The notes: generated by a model not told the origin, from the letters alone. A DNA stretch of 32,000 nt from Candidatus Hermodarchaeota archaeon (GCA_048886185.1 JBHLKY010000005.1:170458-202457); one strand, 5' to 3'; counted from the first letter of the stretch, positions 7,127 to 29,196 are shown. Made by a program: numbers and translations.

Positions 7127-7570
7127 CTTCTTGAATATTTATCCTTAATTTGTCTTTTAAAAACTAATTGGCCTTGTAGCATCTTTTCCAGAGTCTTCAT
7201 TAACTCTAAGATTATTATCACGGTATATAATCCCTGCTATTATCCAAATAGATAGCTCAGTTATAACTCAGTCCGATAATACAATGACTACTCAGTCTAA
7301 TGACTCTATGATAATCCCATCTGGTCGTTCTAATAGTACTCATTCTTAGAAGCTAAAATTTCAGACATGACCATTTTATTTCCCACTTTTGCATTATTAG
7401 TAATCAGAATTGCCTTTAAAAGGAAAAACTGCATTAAAATACAAAGTAAACCTTTCTCGGGCCTCAATAACACAATTTATTTACTAACAGTTATTTCAAG
7501 TTGAGTTAGATTTTTTCGAAGTCTTTAGAATTCGTTCTAAGCTTGTTCTATCTCGAATTATTATCTAGGA

Positions 7571-13888: not shown

Positions 13889-13948
13889 CCTTTAGCTTTC
13901 ATGATTTTGCTTTTTACGATAGTTTTAGCCTAGAAATCACTATAGTTA

Positions 13949-13991
13949 TAATGAATAATTATGCAAAACATTTATGAATAAATATTCATAA
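13949..13991. promoter_or_regulatory. Tandem palindromic operator-like sites upstream of the NifX/ATPase operon
   Basis: 13972-13991 TTATGAAT-AAAT-ATTCATAA has perfect arms. A degenerate copy TAATGAAT-AATT-ATGCAAAA lies at 13949-13968. Confidence 0.65.
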
Positions 13992-14061
13992 TTCTTAATC
14001 AAATTTCTCTAGCCTTACAGAAGAAAGGAAAACTCTTCTAAAGCTGAAAGATGTGAGGTAA

Positions 14062-14481
14062 TTGAAGATTGGTTTAGCTTCAACTGGAACTACTCTAGAT
14101 CTTTTATTTGCCAATGTATTTGGACGATGCTCTTTTTTTGTAATAGTTGACTCTGAAAACAAAGAAGTGTTAACTGTTTTTCCAAATAAGGCACGAAATG
14201 CTGCTGGTGGTGCAGGAATTCAGGCAGCTCAATCATTGATTGATCAAAAAATTGATGCAATAATAGCTCCTCGATTGGGTCCAAATGCTTGGAGTGTATT
14301 AAAGGGTGCTGGTGTAAAAATATACACAGGAATAAATGGTACTCTTCAGGAAAATATTGAAGCTTTTCTTGGAGGAAAATTAACTGAGATGACAGGTGCC
14401 TCACGATCAGGCATGGGACGTGGCCGGGGAGGACGTATGGGTCGTGGTGGAGGCCAAGGTTTGGAGGAGGATCAGGATTAA
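14062..14481 (+). CDS. NifB/NifX-family (dinitrogenase FeMo-cofactor-binding domain) protein with Gly/Arg-rich tail
   Basis: VFGRCSFFVIVD, GGAGIQAAQ, IIAPRLGPNAWSVLKGAGVKIY, tail GMGRGRGGRMGRGGG. TTG start preceded by GTGAGGT. Confidence 0.9.
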   Translation: MKIGLASTGTTLDLLFANVFGRCSFFVIVDSENKEVLTVFPNKARNAAGGAGIQAAQSLIDQKIDAIIAPRLGPNAWSVLKGAGVKIYTGINGTLQENIEAFLGGKLTEMTGASRSGMGRGRGGRMGRGGGQGLEEDQD

Positions 14482-14527
14482 AACCAAAAAGTTGCAATAA
14501 TAAGGACACCATTTGAGGTAAAATAAA

Positions 14528-14929
14528 ATGCGATTATGTATCCCTTCTGAAACAAGAGACGGACTTGAATCACAAGTAGGGTATCATTTTGGGCGAGTAC
14601 CATCATATACTATCTACGATGATGAAACAAAAAGGATTGAAATTGTTGAGAATACTTCATCTCATATGGGTGGAATAAAATTACCTGCAGAACTTTTACG
14701 TGATTATAATGTTGATGTTATGCTTTGTGGTGGTTTAGGTCGCCGGGCAATCCAATTATTCGAACAATTCGGTATAGAGGTCTATATAGGTGCCCATGGA
14801 ACCGTTGAGGACGCAATTAAACAGTATAATCGAAATAAATTGCGAATGGCAACCGATAAAGATGCCTGTGAAGAACATAAATATCGTGGGGAAACACATG
14901 GCGAAAACCATGAGCATCATCATCATTAG
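14528..14929 (+). CDS. NifB/NifX-family protein with His-rich tail
   Basis: HFGRVPSYTIYD, VMLCGGLGRRAIQLFEQFGIEVY, tail CEEHKYRGETHGENHEHHHH. Confidence 0.9.
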   Translation: MRLCIPSETRDGLESQVGYHFGRVPSYTIYDDETKRIEIVENTSSHMGGIKLPAELLRDYNVDVMLCGGLGRRAIQLFEQFGIEVYIGAHGTVEDAIKQYNRNKLRMATDKDACEEHKYRGETHGENHEHHHH

Positions 14930-14941
14930 GAGGCGCACTAT

Positions 14942-15796
14942 ACGATTATTAGTGTGGCTAGTGGTAAAGGTGGAACTGGAAAAACTACAATTGCTGTAAA
15001 TTTAGCCCTTTATCTGGCAAAATCGCATAAAGTAGCATTATTTGATGTAGATGTTGAAGAGCCAGATGATAATCAATTTCTGCATTTTAAGTTACTCACA
15101 CATAAGAGAGTTAATATTTCGAGACCACTAATTAATGAATCAATCTGTTCACATTGCGGTCTTTGTGCTGAATTATGCGAATTTAATGCGTTAGCAGTTT
15201 TACCAGCTCAAGTCATGGTATTCGAGGAATTATGTCATGGTTGTGGACTATGTTCAATGGCTTGTCCAGAGAAAGCTGTAGAAGAAAAATCTCATGAATT
15301 GGGAATTATTCGAAAATCTGACAATAGGAATAGTAATTTGGTATTTTTTGAAGGAAGGTTAAATATTGGGGAGGCCCTTGCAAAACCAATTATACGTGAA
15401 CTTAAAAAGATGGCATTTGAAGAAAAATACGAGCATATCATCTTGGATTTACCACCCGGGTCTGCTTGTCCTGTTATTGAAGCCTTATCTGAGACTGATT
15501 TTGCCGTCCTAGTAACAGAACCAACTCCTGCTGGCGAACATGACCTCAGAATTGCTATAGATCTTGTAAGGCAGCTTGATATCCCTTTTGGAATTGTGAA
15601 CAATCGTTCTGATGTGGGTGATGATCGTATTGATCGTCTCGTCATTAATGAAGATTATGAGTTGCTATTGAATATCCCTCATGATAACGAAATTCTTCAA
15701 CTTTACTCAAATGGTCATCCTCTTATCGGAAAGAAATGGGAATTCGATTCAACTTTTTCGCATCTGTGGACTCGAATTGGGGAGGTAATGAAATGA
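14942..15796 (+). CDS. MinD-superfamily P-loop ATPase with inserted 2x[4Fe-4S] ferredoxin domain (COG1149-like), copy 1
   Basis: SGKGGTGKTT, DVDVEEP, CSHCGLCAELC, CHGCGLCSMACP, DLPPGSACP. The frame is open upstream of GTG 14954, so the proposed start is ACG 14942 (see findings). Confidence 0.9.
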   Translation, partial: TIISVASGKGGTGKTTIAVNLALYLAKSHKVALFDVDVEEPDDNQFLHFKLLTHKRVNISRPLINESICSHCGLCAELCEFNALAVLPAQVMVFEELCHGCGLCSMACPEKAVEEKSHELGIIRKSDNRNSNLVFFEGRLNIGEALAKPIIRELKKMAFEEKYEHIILDLPPGSACPVIEALSETDFAVLVTEPTPAGEHDLRIAIDLVRQLDIPFGIVNNRSDVGDDRIDRLVINEDYELLLNIPHDNEILQLYSNGHPLIGKKWEFDSTFSHLWTRIGEVMK

Positions 15797-16692
15797 CTGA
15801 AAAAATTAAAAATCAAATAACTGTCCTTTCAGGTAAAGGAGGAACTGGAAAAACTACAATCACTGCAGTCCTTGCTCAATTATCAGCGTCTATTTCCTTG
15901 CTTGCAGATTGTGATGTTGATGCACCCAATTTACATCTACTCTTGAATCCTATTAATACCTCTGAAGAACGATTTATGAGTGGTAAAACAGCTATCATAG
16001 ATCCTAAAAAATGCGTTAAATGCGCAAAATGTCTAGATGTATGTCGCTATGGTGCAGTAACATCTGATTTTGATATTAAATCCATGAGTTGTGAAGGTTG
16101 TGCTGCTTGTGCTTGGGTTTGCCCTTCTAAGGCAATTATGATGGAGATTCGACCTTCTGGTATAGTTTATGAAGCTAAGACAAGATTTGGACCAATGGTC
16201 CATGCACGGTTAGATACTGGAGCCGAAAATTCTGGGAAATTAGTTAGCGAAGTTATTCAAAAGAGTCATTTCAAGGCAAAAGAGCATCACAAAGATCTAA
16301 TTATTGTTGATGGCAGTCCAGGGATAGGTTGCCCAGTAATAGCTGCTTTAACTAATGCAAAATTAGTAATCATAGTTGTTGAGCCTACTTCGACCGCAAT
16401 TCATGATATGAAAAGAATATTAGAACTCGTTTACTTTTTTAATCTACCTCCAGTAATTATCATTAATAAGGCCTCCATAAATGATGAAAAACGTCGAAAT
16501 ATTATTGAATTTTGCAAAGAAAGGCATATTTCTATTTTAGGGGAGATTCCATATAATTTAGAAATTTATAAGGCAATGATTAATAGAAAAACTGTTTTAG
16601 AGTATGGTATTAAAGATCTAGAGGATCCATTGAATAAAATGTGGAAAAAAATTCAAGATTTGCTACAATTAAACAGTGGGTGTTCTAAATAA
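15793..16692 (+). CDS. MinD-superfamily P-loop ATPase with inserted 2x[4Fe-4S] ferredoxin domain (COG1149-like), copy 2
   Basis: SGKGGTGKTT, DCDVDAPN, CVKCAKCLDVC, CEGCAACAWVCP, ENSGKLV, DGSPGIGCP. ATG 15793 overlaps the upstream TGA (ATGA) and follows GGAGGT. Confidence 0.92.
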   Translation: MTEKIKNQITVLSGKGGTGKTTITAVLAQLSASISLLADCDVDAPNLHLLLNPINTSEERFMSGKTAIIDPKKCVKCAKCLDVCRYGAVTSDFDIKSMSCEGCAACAWVCPSKAIMMEIRPSGIVYEAKTRFGPMVHARLDTGAENSGKLVSEVIQKSHFKAKEHHKDLIIVDGSPGIGCPVIAALTNAKLVIIVVEPTSTAIHDMKRILELVYFFNLPPVIIINKASINDEKRRNIIEFCKERHISILGEIPYNLEIYKAMINRKTVLEYGIKDLEDPLNKMWKKIQDLLQLNSGCSK

Positions 16693-17936
16693 TAAAGCAG
16701 GATAGAAAGGTTCTATTAGCTGAAGGAGAAAAGGTCGCATTTATAACTTTGTTATGCAACATTTTCTTGATTATTTTTAAAATTACGACAGGAGTATTCA
16801 TCAGAAGTATCGCCTTATTTGCTTCTGGTTTGGATGCTCTAATGGACTTAATAGCAACTTTAGCTGTTTTGTTTGGCCTTCATTATTCTCAAAAGGAACC
16901 CTCAGATCGATTTCCTTACGGATATTACCGAATGGAAACATTAGCTACTCTAATTGTTGCTATTTTCATTCTTTTATTTGGTCTAAGTGTTCTTATTGAA
17001 AGTATTGGTATTATTATTACTCCTAGTATGTTAATTCAACCTGTGTTTGGATTACTGATTTCCATTTTATCTGCTTTAGTAGCATTTGCCCTATATCGTT
17101 ATAATTTGAAAATTGGTACTAAAATAGCCTCAAATGCTCTGATTGGAACAGCAAAAGAATTTCAGCTTGATATTTTCACCAATTCTTTTGTTTTTTTGGG
17201 AATTTTAGCCTATCTTGTAGGATTTCCTCAATTGGAAGGATTTGTTGGTTTAATGATTAGTTTTCTTATTATCAAAACAGGACTAGAATTTGGAAGAACC
17301 TCCCTTTTAATCCTACTAGATGCTATTGATGACCCTGATATAATTGAACAAATCCGATCAATTGTAACACAATTTCCCCAGGTTCAAAAAGTGTCAAATA
17401 TTAGGATTAGACGCTCTGGACCATATTATTTCGCTGACATTGAAATACAAATGCTAGCAACAAAGACAGTAAAATCTCTTACGCATACAACTCACCAATT
17501 AGAATCATCACTAAAGGAAAAATTGTCTCAGTTAGATAGTATCATGATAAGCGTTGAACCCATTGAAAAAACTAAATTCAAAGTTGCGATAGCTGTTTCC
17601 TCTCTTGATACCAACATAAAAAACATTCCTACTGAACATTTTGGACTAGCATCAGCCTTTCTACTTGCTGACATTGATATTAGCAGTCAAACTATTAATA
17701 CAAGTCAATTAGTGGAAAATCCTCATAAGAAGGCTGAAAGAAAACGGGGAATTTTGGGAGCTAAATTTCTAGTGAATAAGGGAATCGATGTACTTGTGAT
17801 AAAGGATATTGGTACTTTTGGCGTCGGGCCAAAAGCTATTCTCACAGAGAATAATATTTTATTATATCAGGTTTGGGGCGAAACAATTCAAGAAATTCTG
17901 GAAGGTTTCCTAATTTATCATTCAGAAGCTAAATGA
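16689..17936 (+). CDS. Cation diffusion facilitator transporter fused to a C-terminal NifB/NifX domain
   Basis: SIALFASGLDALMD, FPYGYYRMETLA, CDF cytosolic domain (IRIRRSGPYYFADIEI), then EHFGLASAFLLAD...GAKFLVNKGIDVLV. The frame is open from 16689; the ORF track begins at TTG 16749 inside TM1. Confidence 0.88.
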   Translation: MIKQDRKVLLAEGEKVAFITLLCNIFLIIFKITTGVFIRSIALFASGLDALMDLIATLAVLFGLHYSQKEPSDRFPYGYYRMETLATLIVAIFILLFGLSVLIESIGIIITPSMLIQPVFGLLISILSALVAFALYRYNLKIGTKIASNALIGTAKEFQLDIFTNSFVFLGILAYLVGFPQLEGFVGLMISFLIIKTGLEFGRTSLLILLDAIDDPDIIEQIRSIVTQFPQVQKVSNIRIRRSGPYYFADIEIQMLATKTVKSLTHTTHQLESSLKEKLSQLDSIMISVEPIEKTKFKVAIAVSSLDTNIKNIPTEHFGLASAFLLADIDISSQTINTSQLVENPHKKAERKRGILGAKFLVNKGIDVLVIKDIGTFGVGPKAILTENNILLYQVWGETIQEILEGFLIYHSEAK

Positions 17937-18022
17937 TTATATACAATTATCCTTGAAATTGCGTGAAATGATGAAATAATCCGACTTAAATATAAGTTAG
18001 AAAAGCGATGAAGGAAAATTAA

Positions 18023-18820
18023 ATGCAAGCAAACTTACAAAAACAAGAACAAGAGATAATATCTCATATGAAACGGGTTAAGCGAAAGATTGTAGTTTTA
18101 TCGGGTAAAGGTGGCGTGGGAAAGTCGACTGTTGCAGCCAATCTTGCCTTGGGTTTTGCTGAAAAATTTCCTGGTAAGGTTGGTATTGCTGATTTAGACT
18201 TCTCAGGCCCTAATATCCCAAAAATCTTAGGTGTAGAAGCTGGAAGATTCTCTCCCCCAGAAAATAAAAAGTTTCATCCAATAAAAGGGCCTAAGGATGT
18301 TAAAATTGTGTCAATGGCCTTTCTTTTAGAGTCACCTTCAACACCTGTTGTATGGCGTGGCCCTCTAAAAATTAAAGCTCTTAGGCAATTTCTGACGGAT
18401 TTTATTTGGGGTGATTTAGAGGTGTTAATTTTCGACTTACCACCAGGAACAGGAGATGAAGCCATTTCCATTATGCAAATGATTCCTGATATGGATGGCG
18501 TTGTGATTGTTACCACTCCACAAGAAATAAGTCTCCTAGATACTGGTAAATCACTCGTTATGTCAAGAAAAATGGATCGTCCAGTCATTGGAATAATAGA
18601 AAACATGTCAGGGTTCATCTGCCCTTCTTGTGGAAAAAAACATGCAATATTTGGAGAAGGGGGTGGAGAAAGAATGGCTAGAGAGTTTGGAACTGAACTT
18701 CTTGGGCAGATTCCATTTGATCCTAAAATCAGAGCTGACGAGGATCAGGGAATTACCCAAGCTTTTAAGTATTTCACTCCTATTGTCGAGAAAATTCTTT
18801 TGAAAAGAATTAATTCATGA
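18023..18820 (+). CDS. mrp: Mrp/NBP35 (ApbC) family Fe-S cluster carrier ATPase
   Basis: VLSGKGGVGKST, PVVWRGP, DLPPGTGDE, VTTPQ, ENMSGFICPSCG, IPFDP. Confidence 0.95.
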   Translation: MQANLQKQEQEIISHMKRVKRKIVVLSGKGGVGKSTVAANLALGFAEKFPGKVGIADLDFSGPNIPKILGVEAGRFSPPENKKFHPIKGPKDVKIVSMAFLLESPSTPVVWRGPLKIKALRQFLTDFIWGDLEVLIFDLPPGTGDEAISIMQMIPDMDGVVIVTTPQEISLLDTGKSLVMSRKMDRPVIGIIENMSGFICPSCGKKHAIFGEGGGERMAREFGTELLGQIPFDPKIRADEDQGITQAFKYFTPIVEKILLKRINS

Positions 18821-18913
18821 ATAGAGGGATATTTGAAAGAATCTATTCTTTATATATTAATTGATGAAAAAAGAAAATTAAAAATTTCTTCATAATTTTA
18901 TGAGGGTAAATGG

Positions 18914-19693
18914 ATGTCTTCACAGCTTGCCCAACTAGCTGAACGAGCTTTAAAATTAATTAAACCATTTAAAAATCTGTTTATTAAGAAAGTAGTCATT
19001 GGAGTTCTTTACACAGGGATGGAATTAGAAGATGAAACAACTGGAGTGTCCTACACATTAACGGATCGTTCCGCCGACCACGAGGGCTACCATCGCCTTC
19101 TTCAAAATGGATTTCTTTCGGACCAAACATTATTTGATTTAATTGAATATTGTTCCTCTCCTTATGCTATATTGAGATCAATTGGAGTTGCTGCACTTAA
19201 CACTTTCAGTCAAGCTCACATTGATTTTTCTGATATCTCTTCTAAAGATATTATTGAGATTTTTAAGCCCACACCAGGCATGGTAGTAGGAATGGTAGGA
19301 AATATCAATCCAATTTCTCTTTACTTGGCTAAGAAAGGCATTTCAGTAAGGATTCTAGACAGATTTATGCCAGCTACCAGTATAAGCAGTATTTCTCAAG
19401 TTAATGAAGTATCAGATCTTGAAGTAGTTGATTCTATCTTTGTTTCTGGTTCTGCGTTAGTATTTGATAACTTTGATGAGATAATCCATTTATTATCCCA
19501 TATATCTGGAAAAAAAATTCTTATTGGACCATCAGCTCAAATATTTCCGAAATTAGCTTTTGATCTTGGATTTTCAGTGGTTGGTAGCTCAAGAATAATC
19601 AATTCCAATTTAACCATGAGAATTATACAGGAAGGTGGGGGATATAAATTTTTCAAAAACTATACCGAAAAATATGTTTTTATAAAAGAATAA
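18914..19693 (+). CDS. DUF364-family Rossmann-like protein (putative metal-binding)
   Basis: VVIGVLYTGMEL...GVSY, RSIGVAALN, VGMVGNI.P, IFVSGSALV, ILIGPSAQ.FP, VVGSS pattern. Confidence 0.75.
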   Translation: MSSQLAQLAERALKLIKPFKNLFIKKVVIGVLYTGMELEDETTGVSYTLTDRSADHEGYHRLLQNGFLSDQTLFDLIEYCSSPYAILRSIGVAALNTFSQAHIDFSDISSKDIIEIFKPTPGMVVGMVGNINPISLYLAKKGISVRILDRFMPATSISSISQVNEVSDLEVVDSIFVSGSALVFDNFDEIIHLLSHISGKKILIGPSAQIFPKLAFDLGFSVVGSSRIINSNLTMRIIQEGGGYKFFKNYTEKYVFIKE

Positions 19694-19734
19694 GCACTTT
19701 TAGATTAAGAAAAAGATAATGAAAGGACTTTTCG

Positions 19735-19788
19735 AATTTTGTGCATATGCACAAAATTTATTAACTAGTTTTGTGCTATAGCTCATTG
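19735..19788. promoter_or_regulatory. Perfect 24-bp palindrome plus degenerate second copy upstream of the DUF5320 gene
   Basis: 19735-19758 AATTTTGTGCATATGCACAAAATT. TATA-like TTTATTAA at 19757-19764. Second site TTTTGTGC-TATA-GCTCATTG at 19769-19788. Confidence 0.7.
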
Positions 19789-19799
19789 GTGATATTATT

Positions 19800-20156
19800 A
19801 TGCCTAGAGGAGATAGAACTGGACCATGGGGATTTGGCTCGATGACTGGCCGAGGATTAGGATATTGTGCTGGATATTCTACTCCGGGATATACAAAAGG
19901 GCCTGGAATGGGATGGGGTCGTAGGTGGGGAGGAGGAGGAGGTTGGGGTCGTAGTCGGGGATTTTATCCAAATTTATATTATTATCCACCTTATGGAACC
20001 CCTTCTTACCCCCCTACGATTGTACCTCCTTGGCCAACCACACTTGATCCAGAAGATGAATCAAAATATCTAGATCAGACACTAAAAAGTTTGAAAAAAG
20101 AGATCGAACTAATAGAGAAGAGATTGGAAGAATTAGCAAGTGAAAGGAAGGATTAA
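19800..20156 (+). CDS. DUF5320-family protein
   Basis: MPRGDRTGP.G.G.MTGRGLGYCAG N-terminus, Gly/Arg/Trp-rich middle, Pro/Tyr-rich linker and C-terminal coiled coil. Confidence 0.88.
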   Translation: MPRGDRTGPWGFGSMTGRGLGYCAGYSTPGYTKGPGMGWGRRWGGGGGWGRSRGFYPNLYYYPPYGTPSYPPTIVPPWPTTLDPEDESKYLDQTLKSLKKEIELIEKRLEELASERKD

Positions 20157-20186
20157 TTAATTTACTAATTGCAGTTATACATCCTT

Positions 20187-20212
20187 CCCTCCTTTTTCTA
20201 ATAAAAAGGGGG
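20187..20212 (+). terminator. Possible hairpin terminator after DUF5320
   Basis: CCTCCTTTTT-CTAAT-AAAAAGGGGG forms a 10-bp stem with one G-U pair, about 30 nt after the stop codon. Confidence 0.35.
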
Positions 20213-20321
20213 TATCTTTCAGCTCAATTGGTAATTTATACCATAAGAGCCTTTTTGAAACAAGAAACCCAATAATGAAAAAGACCCCATTTCATTAATC
20301 AGGAGTTTTAAGTGAATCTTA

Positions 20322-20783
20322 ATGCATGAAAAAGAACAACATGGATTACGAATCATCGAAGAAGATATTATGGAAGTATTGTTCAATTTGCATATTTCCA
20401 GGAATGGAAGACAACGTGTTAAAATGAAAGAAATTTTAGAGATTATGGAAGATAGACTTGCGAAAACCCAGCTGTCAAATATAGTACGCCGAAAACTTGA
20501 ACCAAGGGGATATGTTGATTATCTTCCCTATGAAGGTCTACTCTTAACCAAATTAGGATATCGGGTAGCTCGTCGAATTACTAGAAATCATCGGCTTGCA
20601 GAAGCCATGCTTTATCAAATTTTTGATATGCCATTCAATAAGGTTCACGAAGAGGCTTGTTATCTTGAGCATGGAATTTCTGATGAAATTGCAGAATACA
20701 TATATCGTAAGTTAAAAATGAAAATGACACCGTTTGGAATGCCCATTCCAATGAAGGAGAAAAATAAAGAGCCAGATTGTTGA
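20322..20783 (+). CDS. DtxR/MntR-family metal-dependent transcriptional regulator
   Basis: GYVDYLPYEGLLLTKLG, RNHRLAEAML, HEEACYLEHGIS and TPFGMPIP (CPHGNPIP-like). Confidence 0.88.
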   Translation: MHEKEQHGLRIIEEDIMEVLFNLHISRNGRQRVKMKEILEIMEDRLAKTQLSNIVRRKLEPRGYVDYLPYEGLLLTKLGYRVARRITRNHRLAEAMLYQIFDMPFNKVHEEACYLEHGISDEIAEYIYRKLKMKMTPFGMPIPMKEKNKEPDC

Positions 20784-21014
20784 GATAAGTCTCTAAATGA
20801 AATTCTTATAAGAATACCAGTAACATTAACTTGAATGCAAGATCTTTTTACAAACTTTGCTAAGAAATTAGAAATCTATTATATCCACGCTGTAGGAGTA
20901 AAAATGCATGTGAAGAAAATTGATAATGAGGGAGTTGTGGTTGAAATAAATAAAATATAACAATGAATTCATCTCTTGATTTCTAGGTTTCTTTGTGTCA
21001 AACCCAAAGTTTAA
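20784..21014 (+). pseudogene. Decayed C-terminal FeoA/SH3-like domain of the DtxR regulator
   Basis: In-frame continuation after TGA 20781 reads DKSLNEILIRIPVTLT*MQDLFTNFAKKLEIYYIHAVGVKMHVKKIDNEGVVVEINKI*Q*IHLLISRFLCVKPKV*. Length and pattern fit a DtxR FeoA domain. Confidence 0.5.
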
Positions 21015-21200
21015 ATCCCCAAAATGTCTATTTGATATTAATAAAAAACTTTTCCAAGAATTCAAGAAATCATGTTTGATAGAATTCAAATATATCCTCT
21101 AATTCAGAGGAATGAGTCAAAACAACGAATATTTTTATATCGTTGTTTTAAAATCCTGAAAAACAGTTTTATAAAGAAATGAAATCATAAATATTGGAGT

Positions 21201-21524
21201 GTGTTACATATTAGAGGTTCTGGCCGAGGTGGCCAAGGTGGTAGAAGAAAGCGTTTTAGGGGAGGAAGACCAAGAGTTCAACCTGTCATTAGTGGTGAAT
21301 GGAGTAGTTTAAATGGTGAGATTGAGTTGTCTCTTTCTAATGTAGAGTTAGAGGCCCTAAGATTGGTCGATGAAGAGAATTTGACTCAAGAGCAGGCCGC
21401 AGAACGAATGCATATTTCACGGGGAACTTTGTGGCGAATTTTGCAACAGGCAAGAAAAAAAGTCATTTTAGCGCTTAATTCTGGAAAAGCTTCTGTTCAT
21501 TTAAATATTAGTGAAGAAAAGTAA
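21201..21524 (+). CDS. DUF134-family predicted DNA-binding protein, copy 1
   Basis: ELEALRLVDEENLTQEQAAERMHISRGTLWRILQQARKKVILAL, with a Gly/Arg-rich N-terminus and GTG start. Confidence 0.88.
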   Translation: MLHIRGSGRGGQGGRRKRFRGGRPRVQPVISGEWSSLNGEIELSLSNVELEALRLVDEENLTQEQAAERMHISRGTLWRILQQARKKVILALNSGKASVHLNISEEK

Positions 21525-21731
21525 TGAAATTTTCCTCCCTACGAGAACACTTTTTTAGCTTTTAAATGATAATCTGATGAATAGAACCATTATTTTTGAA
21601 TTATTACTCTTTATTATTGTTTGAATAGCGTAATCCATGCTTTAAATAAAAGCAATTGAAATTAATTGTTTTAAAGAAAGGTTTTCTTTGTTTTAAAGAG
21701 AATTATAATAATCGAACATTTTATAAGGATT

Positions 21732-21749
21732 TGTTCACAAATGTGAACA
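21732..21749. promoter_or_regulatory. Palindromic operator-like site immediately upstream of feoA
   Basis: TGTTCACA-AA-TGTGAACA lies between TATA-like TTATAAG (21721-21727) and the SD-like AGGAGA (21751-21756). Confidence 0.6.
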
Positions 21750-21761
21750 TAGGAGAATGAT

Positions 21762-22007
21762 ATGATTCCACTTGGGCTTTTAACTGAGGGAGATGTAGCA
21801 GAGATTTCACATTCAGAAGGAGGCCGAGGAGTGATCTTAAGGGTCAACGAACTTGGTTTTTATCCTGGAAGCCGTATCAAGATGATTAGGAATGTAAAAG
21901 CAGGCCCAGTACTTGTGGAATTAAAAGGTTGTAGAATTGCAGTTGGCCGAGGAATTTCAATGAAGATTTTTTGTGATAAAATCAAGAAAACAATTATTGA
22001 ACAATAA
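21762..22007 (+). CDS. feoA: Ferrous iron transport protein A
   Basis: RVNELGFYPGSRIKMIRN...GPVLVELKGCRIAVGRGISMKIF, directly upstream of feoB. Confidence 0.92.
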   Translation: MIPLGLLTEGDVAEISHSEGGRGVILRVNELGFYPGSRIKMIRNVKAGPVLVELKGCRIAVGRGISMKIFCDKIKKTIIEQ

Positions 22008-22027
22008 AATCCTTTACAAAGGTAGAA

Positions 22028-24040
22028 TTGGTTGTTTCCCTTATGAAAATTGCCTTGGCTGGAAATCCTAATGTTGGTAAGACAGTCATTTTCAATTTCT
22101 TGACTGGATCTCATCAACATGTAGCTAATTTTCCTGGATGCACTGTTGAACATAAGAAGGGGAAATGCACTTTTGCCGGTAAAACAATGAATGTTATCGA
22201 TTTACCAGGTACTTATAGTCTTAGTGCATATTCTGAAGATGAAATCGTCTCAAGAGAATACCTAATAGATGAAAAACCTGATTTGATTATCAATGTGATT
22301 GATGCATCGAATTTAGAACGTAATTTATTTTTAACCATTCAATTATTGGAGTTGAAACTTCCAATTGTCTTAGTATTAAACATGCTTGACGTAGCTAAAT
22401 CCAAAGGGTTCCTTATTGATGTGGAACGTCTTAGCAAGAAATTAAATGTTCCAGTAATCCCAATGATCGCGACGAAAGGCGAGGGAATGATTGAACTTCT
22501 TAATATGATTCTACAGTACAGAGAAGATAGGAATATTGGATTATTAGTTAAAGGTTCTCTCAGAATCTATGAAGAGAAAATTGCAGACATCATCAAGAAG
22601 TTTGATGCTAGGGGTTTTCTAAACAATTATGATTATACTTGGCTCGGATTGAAACTTTTAGAACAAGATTCAATTATTAGAGGGATAGTAGATGATGCAG
22701 TGTCTAGAGAAAACCCAGAAAACAAAAAAATCTATTGGGAATTGGTAAAAGAGGTAATTCAAGACTTTAAAAACAAGATGAATTTCATAGATCCTGCTGT
22801 ATATATAGTAAATGAAAGATATCGTTTTATTGAAGATTTAATTGATGAAATCATCATTAAAAGAGGAGCAGCTTCTTCAAATATCACCTCCATGTTAGAT
22901 GAAGTTCTTACAGATAAGTATCTTGGTATTCCTATCTTTTTAACAAGTTTGTGGATTATTTTTACCTTTACTTTCACTCTCTCTGAACCCTTTGTACTTA
23001 TCCTTGAGGAGATATTTACCTTCTTATCGTTTCAAATCAAATTTATAATCCCTAATCCAGTTTTAGCTTCCATAGTTTCAGGTATTATAGATGGAGTCGG
23101 GACAATTCTTGTTTTTATCCCTACCCTTTTTCTGCTATTTTTTGCAATGGCTATACTTGAAGATTCTGGTTACATGGCACGAGCTGCTTTTATAATGGAT
23201 AAATGGATGGAAAAAGTAGGTTTGCATGGAAAATCTTTCATCCCATTGATGCTTGGATTTGGGTGCACGGTTCCCGCAATAATGGCCACACGCTCAATAA
23301 GAGGGAAACAAGATAGATTAATAACAATCGCCGTTACTCCTTTTATATCTTGTTCAGCTCGTTTACCAATATACGTTTTATTCGCTGGTGTGTTTTTTCC
23401 TGATTACGCTGGATTTGCTATTCTTACAATGTATGTACTTGGGATCGTAATAGCTGTTCTAAGCGCTTTTGTACTTAATAAGGTCATTTTCACTCATGAG
23501 GATAGACTATTCATTATGGAACTCCCTGAGTATCAGAAACCTAGTATAATTGTAGCCACAAGGGAAATGTGGAATCGTGGTTCCATATTTTTAAAAAAAG
23601 CGGGTACAATAATTCTAGGAGCGTCATTATTAGTATGGACATTAAGTAATATACCATTTGGTGCAACTACCAAAAATACTCTTTTAGGAATGGTAGGAAA
23701 TGTTCTTCAACCCTTGTTTATACCATTTGGATGGAGTTGGGAATTTATTGCTGCTTTAATACTAGGTTTAATAGCTAAAGAAATTATTATAGCAACTTTA
23801 GGTCTCCTTGTTGGGACATCTCTTGAAACATTTTTAGGTTCTTCTCTTTCTCTTAGCCAAGCTTTTTCTTTTATGGTATTCGCTTTACTCTATGTACCTT
23901 GTATTGCTACGATCTCTGTAATGAAAGCAGAAACAAGATCTTGGAAAATAACAGTATTATTAGTTATTAGTTATATTATAATTGCTTATGCAGTAGCTTT
24001 GTTCTTTCGATTAGCTTTATTGATATTAGGATTTGATTAA
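22028..24040 (+). CDS. feoB: Ferrous iron transport protein B
   Basis: GNPNVGKT, NFPGCTVE, DLPGTYSL, LNMLD, EDSGYMARAAF, GFGCTVPAIMATR, SCSARLP, LYVPCIAT. Start may be ATG 22043. Confidence 0.97.
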   Translation: MVVSLMKIALAGNPNVGKTVIFNFLTGSHQHVANFPGCTVEHKKGKCTFAGKTMNVIDLPGTYSLSAYSEDEIVSREYLIDEKPDLIINVIDASNLERNLFLTIQLLELKLPIVLVLNMLDVAKSKGFLIDVERLSKKLNVPVIPMIATKGEGMIELLNMILQYREDRNIGLLVKGSLRIYEEKIADIIKKFDARGFLNNYDYTWLGLKLLEQDSIIRGIVDDAVSRENPENKKIYWELVKEVIQDFKNKMNFIDPAVYIVNERYRFIEDLIDEIIIKRGAASSNITSMLDEVLTDKYLGIPIFLTSLWIIFTFTFTLSEPFVLILEEIFTFLSFQIKFIIPNPVLASIVSGIIDGVGTILVFIPTLFLLFFAMAILEDSGYMARAAFIMDKWMEKVGLHGKSFIPLMLGFGCTVPAIMATRSIRGKQDRLITIAVTPFISCSARLPIYVLFAGVFFPDYAGFAILTMYVLGIVIAVLSAFVLNKVIFTHEDRLFIMELPEYQKPSIIVATREMWNRGSIFLKKAGTIILGASLLVWTLSNIPFGATTKNTLLGMVGNVLQPLFIPFGWSWEFIAALILGLIAKEIIIATLGLLVGTSLETFLGSSLSLSQAFSFMVFALLYVPCIATISVMKAETRSWKITVLLVISYIIIAYAVALFFRLALLILGFD

Positions 24041-24055
24041 AGTAGAGGATAATAA

Positions 24056-24490
24056 ATGCAAAACAATAGGTTGAAGAGATTTACTTATGAAGCAGGAGTC
24101 TATAGCGTTCTTTATATTGTTATAGGCGCATTTGGGCTATTAACATTTTTTTTTGATTCATTCTTTGAAAGTACTCTCATAACGGATCCACTTGAGTCAC
24201 TGATATTAATTTTAATCGCAATAATCTATTTTAGAGGATTTCTAAAGCTTAAGAGTAAAGATAGTTTAGGTATGGCTTATATCTTTGTTGCAGCAATTAT
24301 GGGCCTCTTGTTAGGGGGATTAACTTTCTTAAATTTTGCTGTTAACGGATTTCTAAGGGGTACATTGGAGACACTGCCTTTTTCAAAGATTTTTAAAGAT
24401 TATTTCTCCTTTTCAATAATAGTGGGTAGTTTAAGCATCATTCCACTCAAAGACGTCCAATCTTTTGAAGATAAGATGATAGAAAAATAG
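24056..24490 (+). CDS. Hypothetical 4-TM membrane protein, probably co-transcribed with feoAB
   Basis: Starts 15 nt after feoB with GAGGA upstream and has four hydrophobic segments. Confidence 0.7.
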   Translation: MQNNRLKRFTYEAGVYSVLYIVIGAFGLLTFFFDSFFESTLITDPLESLILILIAIIYFRGFLKLKSKDSLGMAYIFVAAIMGLLLGGLTFLNFAVNGFLRGTLETLPFSKIFKDYFSFSIIVGSLSIIPLKDVQSFEDKMIEK

Positions 24491-25066
24491 ATTGATAGAG
24501 CGAGTTCTTTACAAATCCATTATACAATGACAATTGGCATTTCCTCTAGATATTTTATTGATTGGTATATATCCGTTGATGAGTCGAGATACTGTTAATG
24601 GAGGATTTACTCTAGATACAGAACTCTTTCTTTAAACTATCAATCCTGAGAAAGCTAGAACGCTACAAAACGGAGTATATAGGGCATCCTACCTATGCTG
24701 AAGGAGTCTACATGTGTTTTGGATATGCACTCTTATCATAAAATGTAATAGTGTTCATTTTTATTTTAATACTCTATATTTTACATCTTTTTATTGCTCA
24801 GTCTAGAGAAGAATATTCTAGATTTCCCTAGTACTTATTCTAATAACTGATTTAATTACATAAGCTGCTTATCCAAAAATTACATTTAACAAATCCTTCT
24901 TGATCGAAAACCTGAAAATATATAACTATTTGAATGACAACTAAGGAATTTACAAGTAAAGATTTTCCTTATCCATCAAGGATTCAAAATATTAGATAAT
25001 CAATTTATCTGATCTTAAGTAAGAATTCTTTATCAGTCTGTTAGTCATTATTTTATTTTTTCAAAC

Positions 25067-26587
25067 TTGGTTACTGAAATGAAAGAAAAAATTGATACAA
25101 ATAATAAGAAACTCATTGTTATAGGAGCTGGATTTGGGGGTATTGCATCTGCTATTCGAATGCAAGCTGCAGGTTATAATGTACTTTTATTAGAGAAAAC
25201 TAACCAAATTGGTGGTAAAGCTTCTGTCTTTAAGATCAATAATTATATTTTCGATGCAGGACCAACTGCAATAACGGTTCCTCATTTAATTCAGGAGTTA
25301 TTCGAATTAAATAATGAGAATATGAAAGATTATTTAGAATTAATTCCAATTAGACCCTATTTTCGAATTTATTTTCATGATGGCTCTTATTTCAACTACT
25401 CGACTGTAGAGGAAAATTTTGCCCAAATAAAGAAAATAAGTCCTGAGGATCTTCAGGGTTATAAAAAGATGATGAAATCGATTGAACCAATTTTCCAGAA
25501 GGGTTTTATAGAACTTTCTGATAAACCTTTCGACTCATTCTTCTCAATGTTAAAGATTGGCCCTCCATTACTAAAGTTGGGCGCCTACAGATCAGTATAT
25601 TCTTATGTTTCAAAATATATAAAGAATAAGAAATTACGAATGGTTTTCAGTTATCATCCCTTACTTATTGGAGGAAATCCTTTCAAAATAACTTCGATTT
25701 ATATGCTTATTCAAGCTATTGAAAAAGAATGGGGAGTATGGTTTGCAAAAGGAGGAACTGGTTCTTTAGTTCAGGAGTTTGGAAAACTATTCAAGCGATT
25801 GGGAGGAGAAATAGCCTTAAATAGTGAAGTGGTTAAAATAATTGTCTCTGATAATTCATCTGTTGAAGGAGTAACTACTAAGGATGGGAAATATTATGAT
25901 GCTTCGATAGTTATTTCCAATGTTCCTGTTGCGACCACTTACATGCATATGATTGAAGAAAAATATCGTAAAAAAAATTCCAATAACAGATATTCAAAAG
26001 CAACATATGGGATGAGTGTATTTATGATCTATTTTGGTACAGATTGTAAGTATCCAAATCTCCATATTCATAATATTTTATTAGGCCCTAATTATAAAAG
26101 TTTGATTACTGATATCTTTAATAAAAAGCGCTTAAGCAAGGAAGGTAACTTTTCAGCTTATCTATATATTCCTACACAAGTAGATCCCACCCTTGCTCCA
26201 GGAGAAGGGGAATCATGTTATATCTTAGTCCCAGTGCCCAATCAAGATTCTAATATAGATTGGGAACATAAGAAAGCTCAGTTTCGTGATCATATTATCA
26301 GCTCCATTGAAAGTAGATTCATGCCAGATTTGCAAAAGCACATCATCGTTGAAAAAATAATGACTCCAGCAGATTTTGAAAAGTTGCATTCTGATTATAA
26401 AGGAGCAGTATTTTCGCTAGCTCCAACTTTCACCCAATCTGCTTGGTTTAGGCCTCACAATAAATCAGAGGACATTAAGGGACTATATCTTGTTGGAGCT
26501 GGTACTCATCCAGGTGGGGGCATTCCAGGAGTACTTACAAGTGCAAAAATAACTTCTAACCAAATACTTCAATCTTCATTACCCTGA
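25067..26587 (+). CDS. crtI: Phytoene desaturase (CrtI-type carotenoid desaturase)
   Basis: IVIGAGFGGIASA, FDAGPT, FSYHPLLIGGNPF, GVWFAKGGTG, GAVFSLAPTFTQSAWFRPHN, LVGAGTHPGGGIPGV. Start may be ATG 25079. The exact CrtI/CrtN/CrtD subtype is not resolved. Confidence 0.9.
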   Translation: MVTEMKEKIDTNNKKLIVIGAGFGGIASAIRMQAAGYNVLLLEKTNQIGGKASVFKINNYIFDAGPTAITVPHLIQELFELNNENMKDYLELIPIRPYFRIYFHDGSYFNYSTVEENFAQIKKISPEDLQGYKKMMKSIEPIFQKGFIELSDKPFDSFFSMLKIGPPLLKLGAYRSVYSYVSKYIKNKKLRMVFSYHPLLIGGNPFKITSIYMLIQAIEKEWGVWFAKGGTGSLVQEFGKLFKRLGGEIALNSEVVKIIVSDNSSVEGVTTKDGKYYDASIVISNVPVATTYMHMIEEKYRKKNSNNRYSKATYGMSVFMIYFGTDCKYPNLHIHNILLGPNYKSLITDIFNKKRLSKEGNFSAYLYIPTQVDPTLAPGEGESCYILVPVPNQDSNIDWEHKKAQFRDHIISSIESRFMPDLQKHIIVEKIMTPADFEKLHSDYKGAVFSLAPTFTQSAWFRPHNKSEDIKGLYLVGAGTHPGGGIPGVLTSAKITSNQILQSSLP

Positions 26588-26828
26588 AAACATTTATTTA
26601 TTTTGATAAAGCAAAGAATACTTCAGCGAGAATTCAACACCGTAAGTTGTAAAAGGAGTTAAGAAATTAGTTAATATTTTGAAAGATCGGGTTATGGGTA
26701 TCTTTTCTTAGTAAGAAAATGAAGTGAGTAGTTTCTTATCTCAACGATATTTGAACATAAACTCCGCTTTTCTTGGAACTAATATTTTATCGGCCTATTT
26801 CTTACTGATCCTTATTGATTTTTAATCC

Positions 26829-27260
26829 TTAAATAGACTGAATTCGATGATCATTATTTGAGTGAATATGATAATGAATTTTATGTGATTTGCATTGTTC
26901 GCATTGAACTGTTAAACTTCCTTTTTCAAAAACTGATTGAACATGTCCACAATCTTCACAATGATAATAATCCTCTGGATTAGCAATTTTAATAGCTAAA
27001 CCATTTAGTAATGCTTTAGCAATTTTACGATGAGCAGACTCTAGATGCCTTGAAATAGTTGACTGACTGATTCTCATCCTCTCCGCAGCTTCCTGCTGCT
27101 TCATCCCTTTTAAATCAGTCAATCGAATGGCTTCTAACTCCTCAATAGTTATTGATACTTCATCAGGAACATCTAGTAATGGTATACCACGAGGCTTAAA
27201 ATAGTATTGTGAGGGTTCACATCGAACAGTTCTAGGATTTTTACCACGAGGAATATTCAT
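26829..27260 (-). CDS. DUF134-family predicted DNA-binding protein with C-terminal zinc ribbon, copy 2
   Basis: PRGKNPRTV...YYFKPRGIP, EELEAIRLTDLKGMKQQEAAERMRISQSTISRHLESAHRKIAKAL, CEDCG...CEQCKS. Confidence 0.9.
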   Translation of the reverse strand: MNIPRGKNPRTVRCEPSQYYFKPRGIPLLDVPDEVSITIEELEAIRLTDLKGMKQQEAAERMRISQSTISRHLESAHRKIAKALLNGLAIKIANPEDYYHCEDCGHVQSVFEKGSLTVQCEQCKSHKIHYHIHSNNDHRIQSI

Positions 27261-27328
27261 TCACTCCAAAAATTATTAATTTTGATATTCAACCGAATAA
27301 GATCATTTTTTGAATGTTAATAAAAAGG

Positions 27329-27348
27329 TTATGAATTATTATTCATAA
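27329..27348. promoter_or_regulatory. Palindromic operator-like site upstream of DUF134 copy 2
   Basis: TTATGAAT-TATT-ATTCATAA has arms identical to the site at 13972. On the minus strand it is followed by TATA-like TTTATTAA (27324-27317). Confidence 0.7.
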
Positions 27349-27406
27349 AAAGCTCCAGATTGCTGCTTTTCTGAATCTTAGATCAACTGATAATCTGGAG
27401 TTCAAC

Positions 27407-29194
27407 TTAACGATCATGTAAAATATAATATTCATTTACCATTTTTTCAATATCTACAATAGATCCACGAGTTGGACCTTCCAAGAGTGGTTCTTTAGTA
27501 AATCTTTCTGGAAGAGTATCTTCTTCTTTCGTCAGACCAAACTTTTGGTTAAGCTTATAATCGCGTTCAATGGACTCATGTAGAATTTTCATCAGATACT
27601 CAGGAGTATAATCTATTCCTGTGCCATAAGTTAATAGATTTGATGCGTTTTCTAAATTTAGAATATCCATACACAGGCCAATATTTTTGCACATGGTCAT
27701 GCAATCTGTAAGGAGTGCAATTTTTTCTGAATATGTAACCAATGCTGCTTTACCTTCCTCTGAAATCCTATCAGCAGCTTTCTCTGTCCCAAATCGTTTT
27801 TTCGCTTCTTTCCACCTCATTGTTAACTCGAAAAAAGGTTCAGCTCTAAGATGATCTCCTCCTCGCGACGCGATTGCGTATGTCAGGCCGTAAGCTTTCA
27901 AACCTCGGGGATCACCACATATTATATCCAAACCTTTCACCTGCATAACGAGTTTCCTTACTTCACTATTGAATTTCTGGGAGAATTTTGTCGCTCCCTC
28001 TGCGAATTCATCACCGATCCCCTTTCGGAAGATTATCATATCAACTATTTTTCTTATTTTATTAATATCCCCCCAGGACAGCTCTATGCCACCTACATCT
28101 TCTGGTGTAATTAATTCTTTTTCTTGGCATTCCATCAACCATCCTATCACTTCGCATGTAGAAAGTGAGTCCAAACCTACCTGATTGAGGTAATAATTCA
28201 TCTCTAACGCGAACTTCAGATCAGATACTCCTATTCGAGTGGTAAACCCACAAAGTGTTTCATATTCTGGCCCTTCAGCTTCATAATCACCACATACATA
28301 ATACCGAGAACAGTGAAGATTACAATTGAAACAACCTTTGTTCTTCACCTTGTATTTCTCAGCAAGATGTTCTCCAGAAACTTTATCGAGGTAATCACAC
28401 ACCCCTTTCTGGAAGTGATTCGTAGGTAGAATACCAATTCCATTTAGATCCGTCATTAACATTGTCGTTCCAAGGTGATAGCGTTTTTTGTACTCAATAT
28501 GATTGAAGATTTCCTTCTTGAGTTTATTTACTTCAGACATAAATGCAAGTGGTTCTGCTACTTCAACAGAACGATGGCCACGTACTGCAACGGCTTTCAG
28601 GTTTTTCGAGCCCATAACCGCTCCCATCCCTGTTCTACCACTTGCTCGATTTCCGCTGGATATAACCGAGGAATAAAGAACTTTCTTCTCGCCTGCAGAC
28701 CCTATAGCAGCAACTTGGATTGAGAAATCTCTGTTCTTTTGCCGAATTTTATTGGTTGTATCGACAACAAAACTCCCCTCATATTCAGGACAATCGATGA
28801 ATAGAACCTCTGAATCTGTTATGAGTAAATAAAGTAGATTCCTTGCTTTCCCAGTAATGATTATTTGATCAAATCCTGTTAGTTTCATCTCGGCTCCAAA
28901 TTGTCCACCTGCAGCAGAGTCTCCAAGAATACCTGTGAGAGGAGATTTTGCTGATATCGTAAAATAAGCAGAGGCAGGTAAAAATGATCCTGTTAATGGG
29001 CCAATCCCAAAGATCAGAATATTATCTGGACTAAGGGGATCACAATGTGGATCTAATTCTTCATACAATCGTTTTGTATTTGCTGCACGACCACCTATTA
29101 CATTCTTGATCCATGTATTCTTTAAACTATCAACCTTCCATTTTCTTTCTGTTAGATCAATACGTAATATTTTTCCTCCGTAACCATACATCAA
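27407..29194 (-). CDS. aor: Tungsten-dependent aldehyde:ferredoxin oxidoreductase family, large subunit
   Basis: GYGGKILRIDLT, SAKSPLTG.LGDS.AGG.FG.EMK, GRTGMGAVMGSKNLKAVAVRG, GCFNCNLHC, EGPEYET, GLDSLS, SRGGDHL, DCMTMCK. Confidence 0.95.
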   Translation of the reverse strand: MMYGYGGKILRIDLTERKWKVDSLKNTWIKNVIGGRAANTKRLYEELDPHCDPLSPDNILIFGIGPLTGSFLPASAYFTISAKSPLTGILGDSAAGGQFGAEMKLTGFDQIIITGKARNLLYLLITDSEVLFIDCPEYEGSFVVDTTNKIRQKNRDFSIQVAAIGSAGEKKVLYSSVISSGNRASGRTGMGAVMGSKNLKAVAVRGHRSVEVAEPLAFMSEVNKLKKEIFNHIEYKKRYHLGTTMLMTDLNGIGILPTNHFQKGVCDYLDKVSGEHLAEKYKVKNKGCFNCNLHCSRYYVCGDYEAEGPEYETLCGFTTRIGVSDLKFALEMNYYLNQVGLDSLSTCEVIGWLMECQEKELITPEDVGGIELSWGDINKIRKIVDMIIFRKGIGDEFAEGATKFSQKFNSEVRKLVMQVKGLDIICGDPRGLKAYGLTYAIASRGGDHLRAEPFFELTMRWKEAKKRFGTEKAADRISEEGKAALVTYSEKIALLTDCMTMCKNIGLCMDILNLENASNLLTYGTGIDYTPEYLMKILHESIERDYKLNQKFGLTKEEDTLPERFTKEPLLEGPTRGSIVDIEKMVNEYYILHDR

Positions 29195-29196
29195 GA

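Follow-up and report, generated by a model that had tools for sequence, protein, structure and literature searches.

Palindromes of 20 bp in a 32,000-nt stretch of DNA from the genome of an Asgard archaeon (Candidatus Hermodarchaeota archaeon, GCA_048886185.1; G000:C5:170458-202457, hereafter the window) fall into two classes, A-type and B-type, which are unique in this genome, conserved in related genomes, and partitioned by DUF134 clade. The window encodes two paralogous DUF134 proteins, DUF134-1 (107 amino acids, plus strand, 21201-21524) and DUF134-2 (143 amino acids, minus strand, 26829-27260), which are the sole matches to PF02001 genome-wide and both pass the family cut-off of 27 bits, with 62.4 and 74.5 bits, respectively. 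We infer that these proteins form two separate autoregulatory circuits, a reading to which we assign a probability of roughly 0.8: DUF134-2 would bind the A-type sites and DUF134-1 the B-type sites, presumably as dimers, and both would likely act as repressors, released by a signal. DUF134 (UPF0251) is a long-standing family of "unknown function" present in most anaerobic lineages, and a literature search found no publication on its function, operator or structure, or on these sites. The host genome (4.84 Mb, 4,843,177 bp, 35% GC) encodes a TATA-binding protein (TBP), and its closest named relatives are metagenome-assembled genomes of Candidatus Hodarchaeota. The sequencing runs known to contain the window are of sediment-metagenome DNA, perhaps the material from which the assembly was made, and include no RNA run.

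Two Classes of Palindromic Sites

The A-type class, TTATG(A/C)AT-N4-AT(T/G)CATAA, is found at the promoters of the NifX operon and of DUF134-2, and the B-type class, TTTTGTGC-N4-GCACAAAA, at the promoter of DUF5320. Direct reading confirmed the three palindromes reported in the first-pass annotation of the window. The proximal A-type site of the NifX operon (13972-13991) is the perfect palindrome TTATGAAT-AAAT-ATTCATAA, whose AT-rich center may double as a TATA box; as first described, it lies 70 nt before the TTG start codon of NifX-1, and the A-type site of the DUF134-2 promoter, TTATGAAT-TATT-ATTCATAA (27329-27348), lies 68 nt before the ATG at 27260 on the minus strand. The B-type site O1, TTTTGTGC-ATAT-GCACAAAA (19737-19756), covers the position expected for the B recognition element (BRE) in the DUF5320 promoter. 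The TATA-like box TTTATTAA noted beside two of the palindromes was also recovered, on the plus strand at 19757-19764, where it abuts O1, and on the minus strand at 27317-27324, 4 nt past the DUF134-2 palindrome; relatives have TTTATATA or TTTATAAA at the former position and CCTTTATATTTA or CCTATATATTTA at the latter. Each promoter had also been credited with a weaker tandem copy, and two of these copies hold up as conserved. The first is the distal A-type site of the NifX operon, TAATGAAT-AATT-ATGCAAAA (13949-13968), which combines the hybrid half-sites TGAAT and TGCAT; the second is a B-type element with one core mismatch, TGTGC-TATA-GCTCA (19769-19788), placed between the TATA box and the ribosome-binding site (RBS) of DUF5320, at the expected transcription start. 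The latter scores low with a symmetric position weight matrix (PWM), and its status as a site comes from its conservation. The third candidate copy, at 27308-27327, scores below 7 bits, is conserved in neither of the relatives G010 and G014, and corresponds to the TATA-box region.

To avoid circularity, one PWM for each class was built solely from the sites of relatives. Genome-wide, PWM-A gives three matches of at least 20 bits, at 13972 (27.8 bits, the top match), 27329 (27.0 bits) and 13949 (23.8 bits, the third best), the next best match reaching 15.3 bits, and PWM-B gives a single one, at 19737 (31.9 bits), followed by a match of 17.3 bits. These results are far above those of local trinucleotide-block shuffles, from which 0.25 (PWM-A) and 0 (PWM-B) matches of at least 20 bits are expected. 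Of the exact 8-N4-8 A-type word, the 4,843,177 bp contain two copies, both in the window, against about 0.02 expected per genome according to a hand estimate from base composition. The degenerate consensus TTWTGWRY-N4-RYWCAWAA, initially proposed as common to the three palindromes, does fit these three sites and no others in the genome, but the relatives split them into two classes. The PWM scan revealed no larger regulon in the 4.84-Mb genome: the next-best matches occur at background frequency, and weak matches of about 8 bits in the window, at 7129, 20310 and 21594 (the last being the only match in the region upstream of FeoA), are indistinguishable from chance. Because there are no further matches in the genome, each regulon would be strictly local. 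The view of these sites as candidate operators of a local regulon can thus be kept, but the size first given to this regulon was overstated, two promoters being left for DUF134-2 and one for DUF134-1.

A-type sites were found upstream of DUF134-2 and/or NifX1 in 15 loci of the genus and in six genomes of the sister family f3, where TGAAT-AATT-ATTCA precedes the DUF134-2-like genes. In the 15 genus loci, the counterpart of the 13972 site is kept upstream of NifX1 or of a DUF134-2-NifX1 pair, and in most genus relatives the full palindrome is preceded, at 23 bp, by a hybrid site, as it is in the window by that at 13949. The 27329 palindrome is identical or near-identical, at equal distance (88 nt), in G010, G014 and G019. 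Sites upstream of DUF134-2 and NifX1 orthologs always read TTATG(A/C)AT-N4-AT(T/G)CA(T/A)AA; some of these promoters have two in tandem, 23 bp apart, and the others just one, with CC and a TATA box behind it. In G009 (L017, L084), tandem A-type sites, TTTTGCAT-AAAT-ATTCATAA occurring twice, are located upstream of a DtxR-like gene followed by FeoA, and iron-uptake genes may, on this arrangement, be part of the DUF134-2 regulon in some relatives.

B-type sites are conserved as well. The 21 DUF5320 promoters of the genus share one layout, with TTTTGTGC-N4-GCACAAAA, a TATA box, TTTTGTGC-AATA-GCTCAT, the RBS GGTGAT and the ATG, and the B site is present upstream of DUF5320 in 18 of the 21 loci. 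In 17 related promoters, the second element is conserved as TTTTGTGC-WATA-GCTCAT, and information content per column amounts to 1.8 bits in the arms, 0.6 in the spacer and 0.3 in the 5' flank; in the related DUF5320 promoters, it is 1.24 bits in the TATA box and 1.09 bits in the second element.

Site Class Follows DUF134 Clade

The inner triplets of the two classes (TGAAT-type versus TGTGC-type arms) never cross between promoter classes in 17-25 related genomes per class. We compared this partition with a maximum-likelihood tree of 45 DUF134 proteins, in which two clades are separated with supports of 95/93. Promoters of the DUF134-1-like clade carry nine B-type sites and no A-type site, with 10 devoid of a scored site, and those of the DUF134-2-like clade 21 A-type sites and no B-type site, with five devoid of a scored site; the correspondence between site class and clade hence shows no exception among 30 scored promoters. 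In the DUF134-2 clade, the site lies upstream of the DUF134 gene itself in 21 of 26 members, and in nine members of the DUF134-1 clade the B site either heads the DUF5320-DtxR-DUF134-1 unit or lies in a divergent intergenic region. The recognition helix differs accordingly, being ISRGT(L/I)WR(I/L)L in DUF134-1-like and ISQST(I/F)SR(H/D)L in DUF134-2-like proteins (ISRGTLWRIL and ISQSTISRHL in the window).

Gene orders show what the site class goes with. Most genus members have the order [A A]-DUF134-2-NifX1-NifX2-MinD-MinD-CDF/NifX-Mrp-DUF364-[B]-DUF5320 and a second, separate unit, [B]-DUF5320-DtxR-DUF134-1, exemplified by G008 and kept in this order in both G008 and G017, while in the sister family f3 the order is [A]-DUF134-2-like-NifX-NifX-MinD-MinD. 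Family f4 has the NifX1-NifX2-MinD-MinD operon back to back with a DUF134-1-like gene, and the intergenic region between the two contains B-type sites (TTTTGTGC-ATAT-GAACAAAA and similar) and no A site, so that the site class does not follow the target operon. A third DUF134 paralog, seen in four genomes (L012, L014, L016 and L045, in G004, G020, G006 and G018, respectively), forms a sub-clade of the DUF134-2-like proteins; it has no A-type site upstream and is located downstream of DUF5320, behind a B-type site. Some genomes would thus appear, from gene order, to put a DUF134-2-type protein under the control of DUF134-1.

DUF134 Promoters across Phyla

A scan of genome contigs returned 80 DUF134 loci, of which 77 were used in the enrichment and neighbor counts, from Acidobacteriota, Zixibacteria, Planctomycetota, Desulfobacterota, Spirochaetota, Caldisericota, Altiarchaeales, Theionarchaea, Promethearchaeota, Methanosarcinales and others. 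In many of these loci, a palindrome of the same frame lies 20-50 nt before the DUF134 start codon, for example, TTATGAGC-ATAT-GCTCATAA, TTATGAAC-ATAT-GTTCATAA, TTTTGAAC-ATAT-GTTCAAAA, ATATGGGC-ATAT-GCCCATAA, TAATGCCC-ATAT-GGGCATTT and TAATGAAT-ATAT-ATTCATAA. Perfect palindromes of the form TG-NNN-N4-NNN'-CA, present in 16 of the 77 loci, reach 1.69/kb in the 120 nt upstream of DUF134 versus 0.069/kb elsewhere in the same loci, that is, a 24-fold enrichment. The frame TTWTG-NNN-N4-NNN-CAWAA, which keeps the outer bases of the consensus proposed earlier, extends to the family level, being common to bacterial and archaeal DUF134 promoters. DUF134 had also been named as the prime candidate binder, under autoregulation, and the presence of the palindrome before DUF134 genes of the genus, of the class and of many other phyla argues for this candidate. 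The base at half-site position 5 varies with the recognition helix: T occupies this position in both half-sites of 20 of the 23 sites detected with a Gln helix, and C does so in 28 of the 35 detected with an Arg helix. Among the neighbors of DUF134 in the 77 loci are NifX-like genes (40), Mrp (26) and MinD-ferredoxin (22). In Methanosarcinales (L098, L109, L112, L118, L124-L127, L135, L148, L158 and L159), the Mrp gene is always next downstream of DUF134, which is often divergent from a NifX-NifX-MinD-MinD cluster.

DUF134 Proteins Share Their DNA-Binding Domain with DeoR

Both proteins of the window show the family hallmark, an N-terminal MPRP..R.V...P....FKPRG segment followed by a helix-turn-helix (HTH) similar to region 4 of sigma-70, with FKPRG replaced by a Gly/Arg-rich N-terminus in DUF134-1. 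Positions P16, K22, P23, E41, E43 and S65 are invariant or nearly so in the alignment of 45 sequences. The structural model of DUF134-2 (predicted local distance difference test [pLDDT] of 84.9) contains helices at 39-50, 55-62 and 66-86 and then a small beta module with a CxxC-N17-CxxC motif. A PDB sequence search with the single protein returned nothing significant, and Foldseek gave no match to the whole model at E ≤ 0.001, with local HTH and zinc-ribbon likenesses only, the HTH superposing on region 4 of extracytoplasmic function sigma factors and the C-terminus resembling HypA/MCM zinc ribbons. The family profile, on the other hand, matches the DNA-binding domain of DeoR (7bhy_A) with an E-value of 2.2e-6, and the HTH superposes on this domain, as bound to its operator (7bhy), at 0.6 Å over 40 columns with 40% identity. 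The DUF134 HTH is homologous to the DeoR DNA-binding domain.

In Bacillus subtilis, DeoR (SorC family, subclass with an HTH of the sigma-70 region 4 type; dra-nupC-pdp operator; PDB 7bhy, 8r7y) binds as a dimer to a promoter-overlapping palindrome and represses locally (PMC11229326). Its recognition helix, ISRPTVSRLL, resembles that of DUF134 (vSRqTlgRil); residues R34 and R39 of this helix contact bases of the half-site TTGAACA, and the native left half-operator has a TGAA-N6-TTCA spacing (PMC11229326), which is the geometry of the A-type site. In the alignment, DeoR R34 corresponds to the Gln/Arg position of DUF134 and R39 to an invariant Arg. The likeness ends there: DUF134 proteins, which are 107-143 amino acids in total, lack the SorC sugar-phosphate effector domain (Pfam), have a predicted N-terminal dimer segment (MPRP..FKPRG) and, in many members, a C-terminal Cys4 ribbon, do not imply a tetramer on two half-operators and, unlike DeoR, span Archaea and Bacteria. 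Because only the HTH is common and the effector domain is absent, DUF134 is not a member of the SorC/DeoR family.

Structure prediction supports a homodimer of DUF134-2, with a score of 0.78 against 0.00 for the best of three controls; this mark was reached by 20 of 30 proteins with structures solved as pairs of one chain and by 1 of 23 with structures solved as single chains, which are rough figures obtained with our own alignment. Contacts agreed between runs by at least 91% and the pLDDT of the partner was at least 68. The predicted interface involves residues 14-28, 37-52 and 77-92 and leaves the recognition helix outside. The C-terminal third of DUF134-2 (26829-26990) has a genus-specific H-C-x2-C-N17-C-x2-C motif and then H-x-H-x-H-S, a module that weakly resembles desulforedoxin, HypA and the zinc ribbons of RNA polymerase subunit P; the DUF134-2-like proteins of the sister family (about 100 amino acids) lack this ribbon, and many bacterial DUF134 proteins have a similar one together with a Gly/Arg-rich tail.

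Proposed Circuits and Alternatives

In the proposed circuits, a DUF134-2 homodimer would bind the A-type core TGAAT-N4-ATTCA, with TGCAT accepted as a half-site, at its own promoter (27329-27348) and, 13 kb away, at the tandem pair (13949-13991) of the NifX/MinD-ferredoxin/CDF/Mrp operon. DUF134-1 would bind the B-type core TGTGC-N4-GCACA, which occurs on either side of the TATA box in the promoter (19737-19788) of the DUF5320-DtxR-DUF134-1 unit. Specificity would come largely from the second recognition-helix residue, Gln selecting A/T and Arg G/C at half-site position 5. The bound protein would most likely block TBP and transcription factor B (TFB) or RNA polymerase, and the resulting repression would be relieved by a metal, Fe-S or redox signal, perhaps read by a conserved N-terminal Cys and the C-terminal Cys4/His-rich module of DUF134-2. 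We favor repression on account of the position of the sites, which overlap or adjoin the BRE/TATA box and the expected start; repression together with autoregulation is also favored by the bacterial sites, which lie inside core promoters, and by the DeoR precedent. In the promoters with tandem sites, about 35 nt separate the proximal palindrome from the start codon, and so the TATA box must lie within the AT-rich center of the palindrome.

Several points weigh against these circuits. The functional steps are deduced from sequence, the TATA-like boxes are called at the same level, and sites located just upstream of the BRE can also activate transcription in archaea. The genomes of one genus or class are kin, and the 30 scored promoters amount to a handful of independent events (about three families plus the wider phyla), in a tree that has long branches and is rooted at midpoint. 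No scored site lies directly upstream of 15 of the 45 DUF134 genes, most of these 15 being apparently inside operons. DUF134-1 of the window is itself without its own B site; its autoregulation thus assumes co-transcription over about 1.4 kb, part of which is degenerate and in which an inverted repeat (21118-21153) lies. In addition, the pass of the dimer prediction may partly reflect likeness to solved HTH dimers. Finally, the DUF134 genes of Methanosarcinales (helix ISRRAFWEDL) have no TG-N3-N4-N3-CA palindrome upstream, and this sub-family may use a different site or have lost autoregulation.

Among the alternatives, DUF134 may bind these sites but activate, by recruiting TFB/TBP from just upstream of the TATA box, a position that some archaeal activators use and that matches the DUF134-2 and DUF5320 promoters, where 0-4 nt lie between the palindrome and the TATA-like box downstream of it. 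Positive control is also known for the orange protein (ORP) genes of Desulfovibrio (PMC8359166). We nevertheless consider activation improbable, for at the DUF5320 promoter another conserved element falls on the expected start site, the TATA box of dual-site promoters falls inside the proximal palindrome, the bacterial palindromes, 20-50 nt before the start codon, are inside the core promoter, and the structural relative DeoR is a repressor.

A single dimeric DUF134 regulator, or a DUF134-1/DUF134-2 heterodimer, could instead serve all three promoters, with the difference between A and B tuning affinity, in line with the single regulator initially postulated. Such a regulator would account for the 8-N4-8 frame and the outer TTWTG/CAWAA bases shared by both classes, for the dimer-interface segments common to the two DUF134 proteins and for the tolerance of hybrid half-sites within the A class. 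It fits poorly with arm classes that never interchange in 17-25 related promoters per class and that each partition with one DUF134 clade, with the B sites that accompany a DUF134-1-like neighbor at the f4 NifX operon, and with the difference between clades at the residue homologous to the base-contacting Arg of DeoR. We therefore abandon the idea of one regulator for the three promoters, which we regard as quite unlikely, in favor of two circuits.

The DtxR-like protein (20322-20783), put forward in the first-pass annotation as the other possible binder, would recognize one or both classes in a metal-dependent manner. Like DtxR/IdeR, it belongs to the dimeric, metal-related regulators, whose palindromic operators are of about 19-20 bp, and its gene stands in the island, immediately after the B-type promoter and next to FeoAB, the order B-DUF5320-DtxR recurring in G008 and G017. 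Yet no DtxR homolog was found within 2.5 kb in any of the 77 diverse DUF134 loci, 25 of which have the palindrome, and only 3 of the 29 B-site loci of the Hodarchaeota class, and no f3 or f4 locus, contain DtxR, so that its gene co-occurs with the palindrome only in a few genus members. Moreover, site class covaries with the DUF134 recognition helix, and the published DtxR/IdeR consensus is unlike these palindromes. DtxR thus has very little chance of being the binder; on these comparisons, its gene is a passenger of the DUF5320 unit and not a predicted binder.

It is just as implausible that the palindromes are RNA hairpins (terminators or attenuators) or recombination sites behind the inversion of the island described below, for, although the 27329 site follows the AOR stop codon by 59 nt, the B palindrome folds as RNA at −12 kcal/mol and A-type sites lie near both ends of the PALP-AOR island that is inverted between G000 and G010, the A-type RNA hairpins are weak (−4.8 and −4.9 kcal/mol), arm sequence is conserved rather than pairing alone, the frequent hybrid sites disrupt pairing, the distance from sites to TATA box and start codon is fixed, AOR has a stronger hairpin and T-run of its own (27353-27400), and the inversion breakpoints lie outside the operators, each set having moved with its gene.

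Comparison with Known Systems

A dimeric HTH repressor acting on a palindrome is a conventional mechanism. The general class to which the two circuits would belong comprises paralogous repressors whose operators have diverged and repressors of archaea that cover the BRE/TATA box or the start site, with which the window shares two paralogs, two site variants in one frame, a predicted single-residue switch and sites over the core promoter; we know of no characterized example of this class that belongs to DUF134. The gene content of the target operon finds its closest parallel in the ORP cluster of Desulfovibrio vulgaris Hildenborough, which encodes the MinD-type ATPases Orp3 and Orp4, each with two [4Fe-4S] ferredoxin motifs, the orange protein and MrpORP (PMC6345978). 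The ORP regulon is strictly local and depends on sigma-54, IHF and the enhancer-binding activator OrpR, whose PAS domain carries a [4Fe-4S] redox sensor (PMC8359166). Both systems have paired MinD-ferredoxin ATPases, small proteins of the NifX/orange-protein type and an Mrp/NBP35 ATPase (open reading frames 14062-18820, Pfam), and in both, control, which in the archaeon is a predicted one, is confined to the promoters of the cluster itself. The archaeal island differs in that it adds a CDF-NifX fusion, DUF364, DUF5320 and FeoAB, in that its host uses TBP and TATA-like boxes, and in that no enhancer-binding protein was found by Pfam among its genes. A DUF134 protein appears to take the regulatory place of OrpR, here and in many other anaerobes.

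The window offers a compact, testable case, with two paralogs, two site variants, a predicted specificity residue and defined target promoters, in which DUF134 gains a testable role as a local genetic switch. The role of the ORP-like NifX/MinD-ferredoxin/Mrp island itself is poorly understood; the two circuits, if true, would identify what regulates these gene sets in Archaea and many Bacteria, provide a simple recognition code from which DUF134 targets could be predicted from sequence, and add a characterized transcription factor to Asgard archaea, where very few are known. More tentatively, and at somewhat less than even odds, DUF134 may be an ancient autoregulator family of Bacteria and Archaea, with the fixed 20-bp frame TTWTG-NNN-N4-NNN-CAWAA set over both sigma-70 and TATA/BRE promoters, a Gln/Arg switch that reprograms the inner triplet, insulated paralog circuits on the ORP-like machinery of anaerobes, and Cys motifs that sense Fe-S, metal or redox state directly.

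Gene Content and Rearrangement of the Island

Genes of the window were called by Pfam. A PALP enzyme (12899-13888) precedes the NifX target operon, which extends from 14062 to 19693 on the plus strand and whose gene order is kept behind the operators in G008, G010 and others. It consists of NifX-like 1 (14062-14481, with a TTG start at 14062 and the RBS GTGAGGT), NifX-like 2 (14528-14929), two MinD/CbiA ATPases with 4Fe-4S ferredoxin inserts (14954-16692), a CDF transporter fused to a NifX domain (16749-17936), an Mrp/NUBPL (Mrp/NBP35-type) ATPase (18023-18820) and DUF364/DUF4213 (18914-19693). On the same strand, DUF5320 (19800-20156; PF17253, 99.2 bits) is the first gene behind the B-type operator and is followed by the DtxR-like gene, in which the metal-binding and dimerization domain alone scored (PF02742), and by DUF134-1. 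FeoA and FeoB (21762-24040), an amine oxidase (25067-26587), DUF134-2 and, on the minus strand, AOR with a ferredoxin (27407-29709) come next.

Relative to its closest relative, G010 (L165, G010:C1:4356000-4375999), the island from PALP to AOR-ferredoxin (13889-27406) is inverted: PALP faces the NifX1 promoter in the window and the DUF134-2 promoter in G010. Because each operator set moved along with its own gene, the breakpoints of this inversion lie outside the operators; no repeat common to both junctions was seen on reading them, no further search having been made. The DUF5320-DtxR-DUF134-1-FeoAB-amine oxidase block is absent from the corresponding place in G010.

Two other inverted repeats were observed near the DUF134 genes. 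One, with 10-bp arms AAAACAACGA ... TCGTTGTTTT and followed by a short A run, lies at 21118-21153, in the 417 nt that separate the DtxR-like gene from DUF134-1 and about 50 nt before the latter; it may be a terminator or else a control element of its own, and its nature bears on whether DUF134-1 is co-transcribed with DUF5320. The other, on the minus strand directly after the AOR stop codon (27353-27400), is a GC-containing stem of 9 bp, CTCCAGATT ... AATCTGGAG, with a T-run behind it; its energy of −14.3 kcal/mol is not significant versus shuffles, and it would plausibly act as a terminator and keep AOR transcripts from reading into the DUF134-2 promoter. The annotated ATG of DUF134-2 lies just 3 nt past a GGAGTGA Shine-Dalgarno sequence (27249-27267, minus strand), and two codons further ATT-CCT aligns with the canonical N-terminus M-P-R. 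Most DUF134-2 orthologs (L004-L018) have no ATG, GTG or TTG there, but ATA, ATT or ATC followed by CC(A/T), 8-9 nt after GGAGTG, an arrangement that suggests near-cognate start codons on the DUF134-2 gene.

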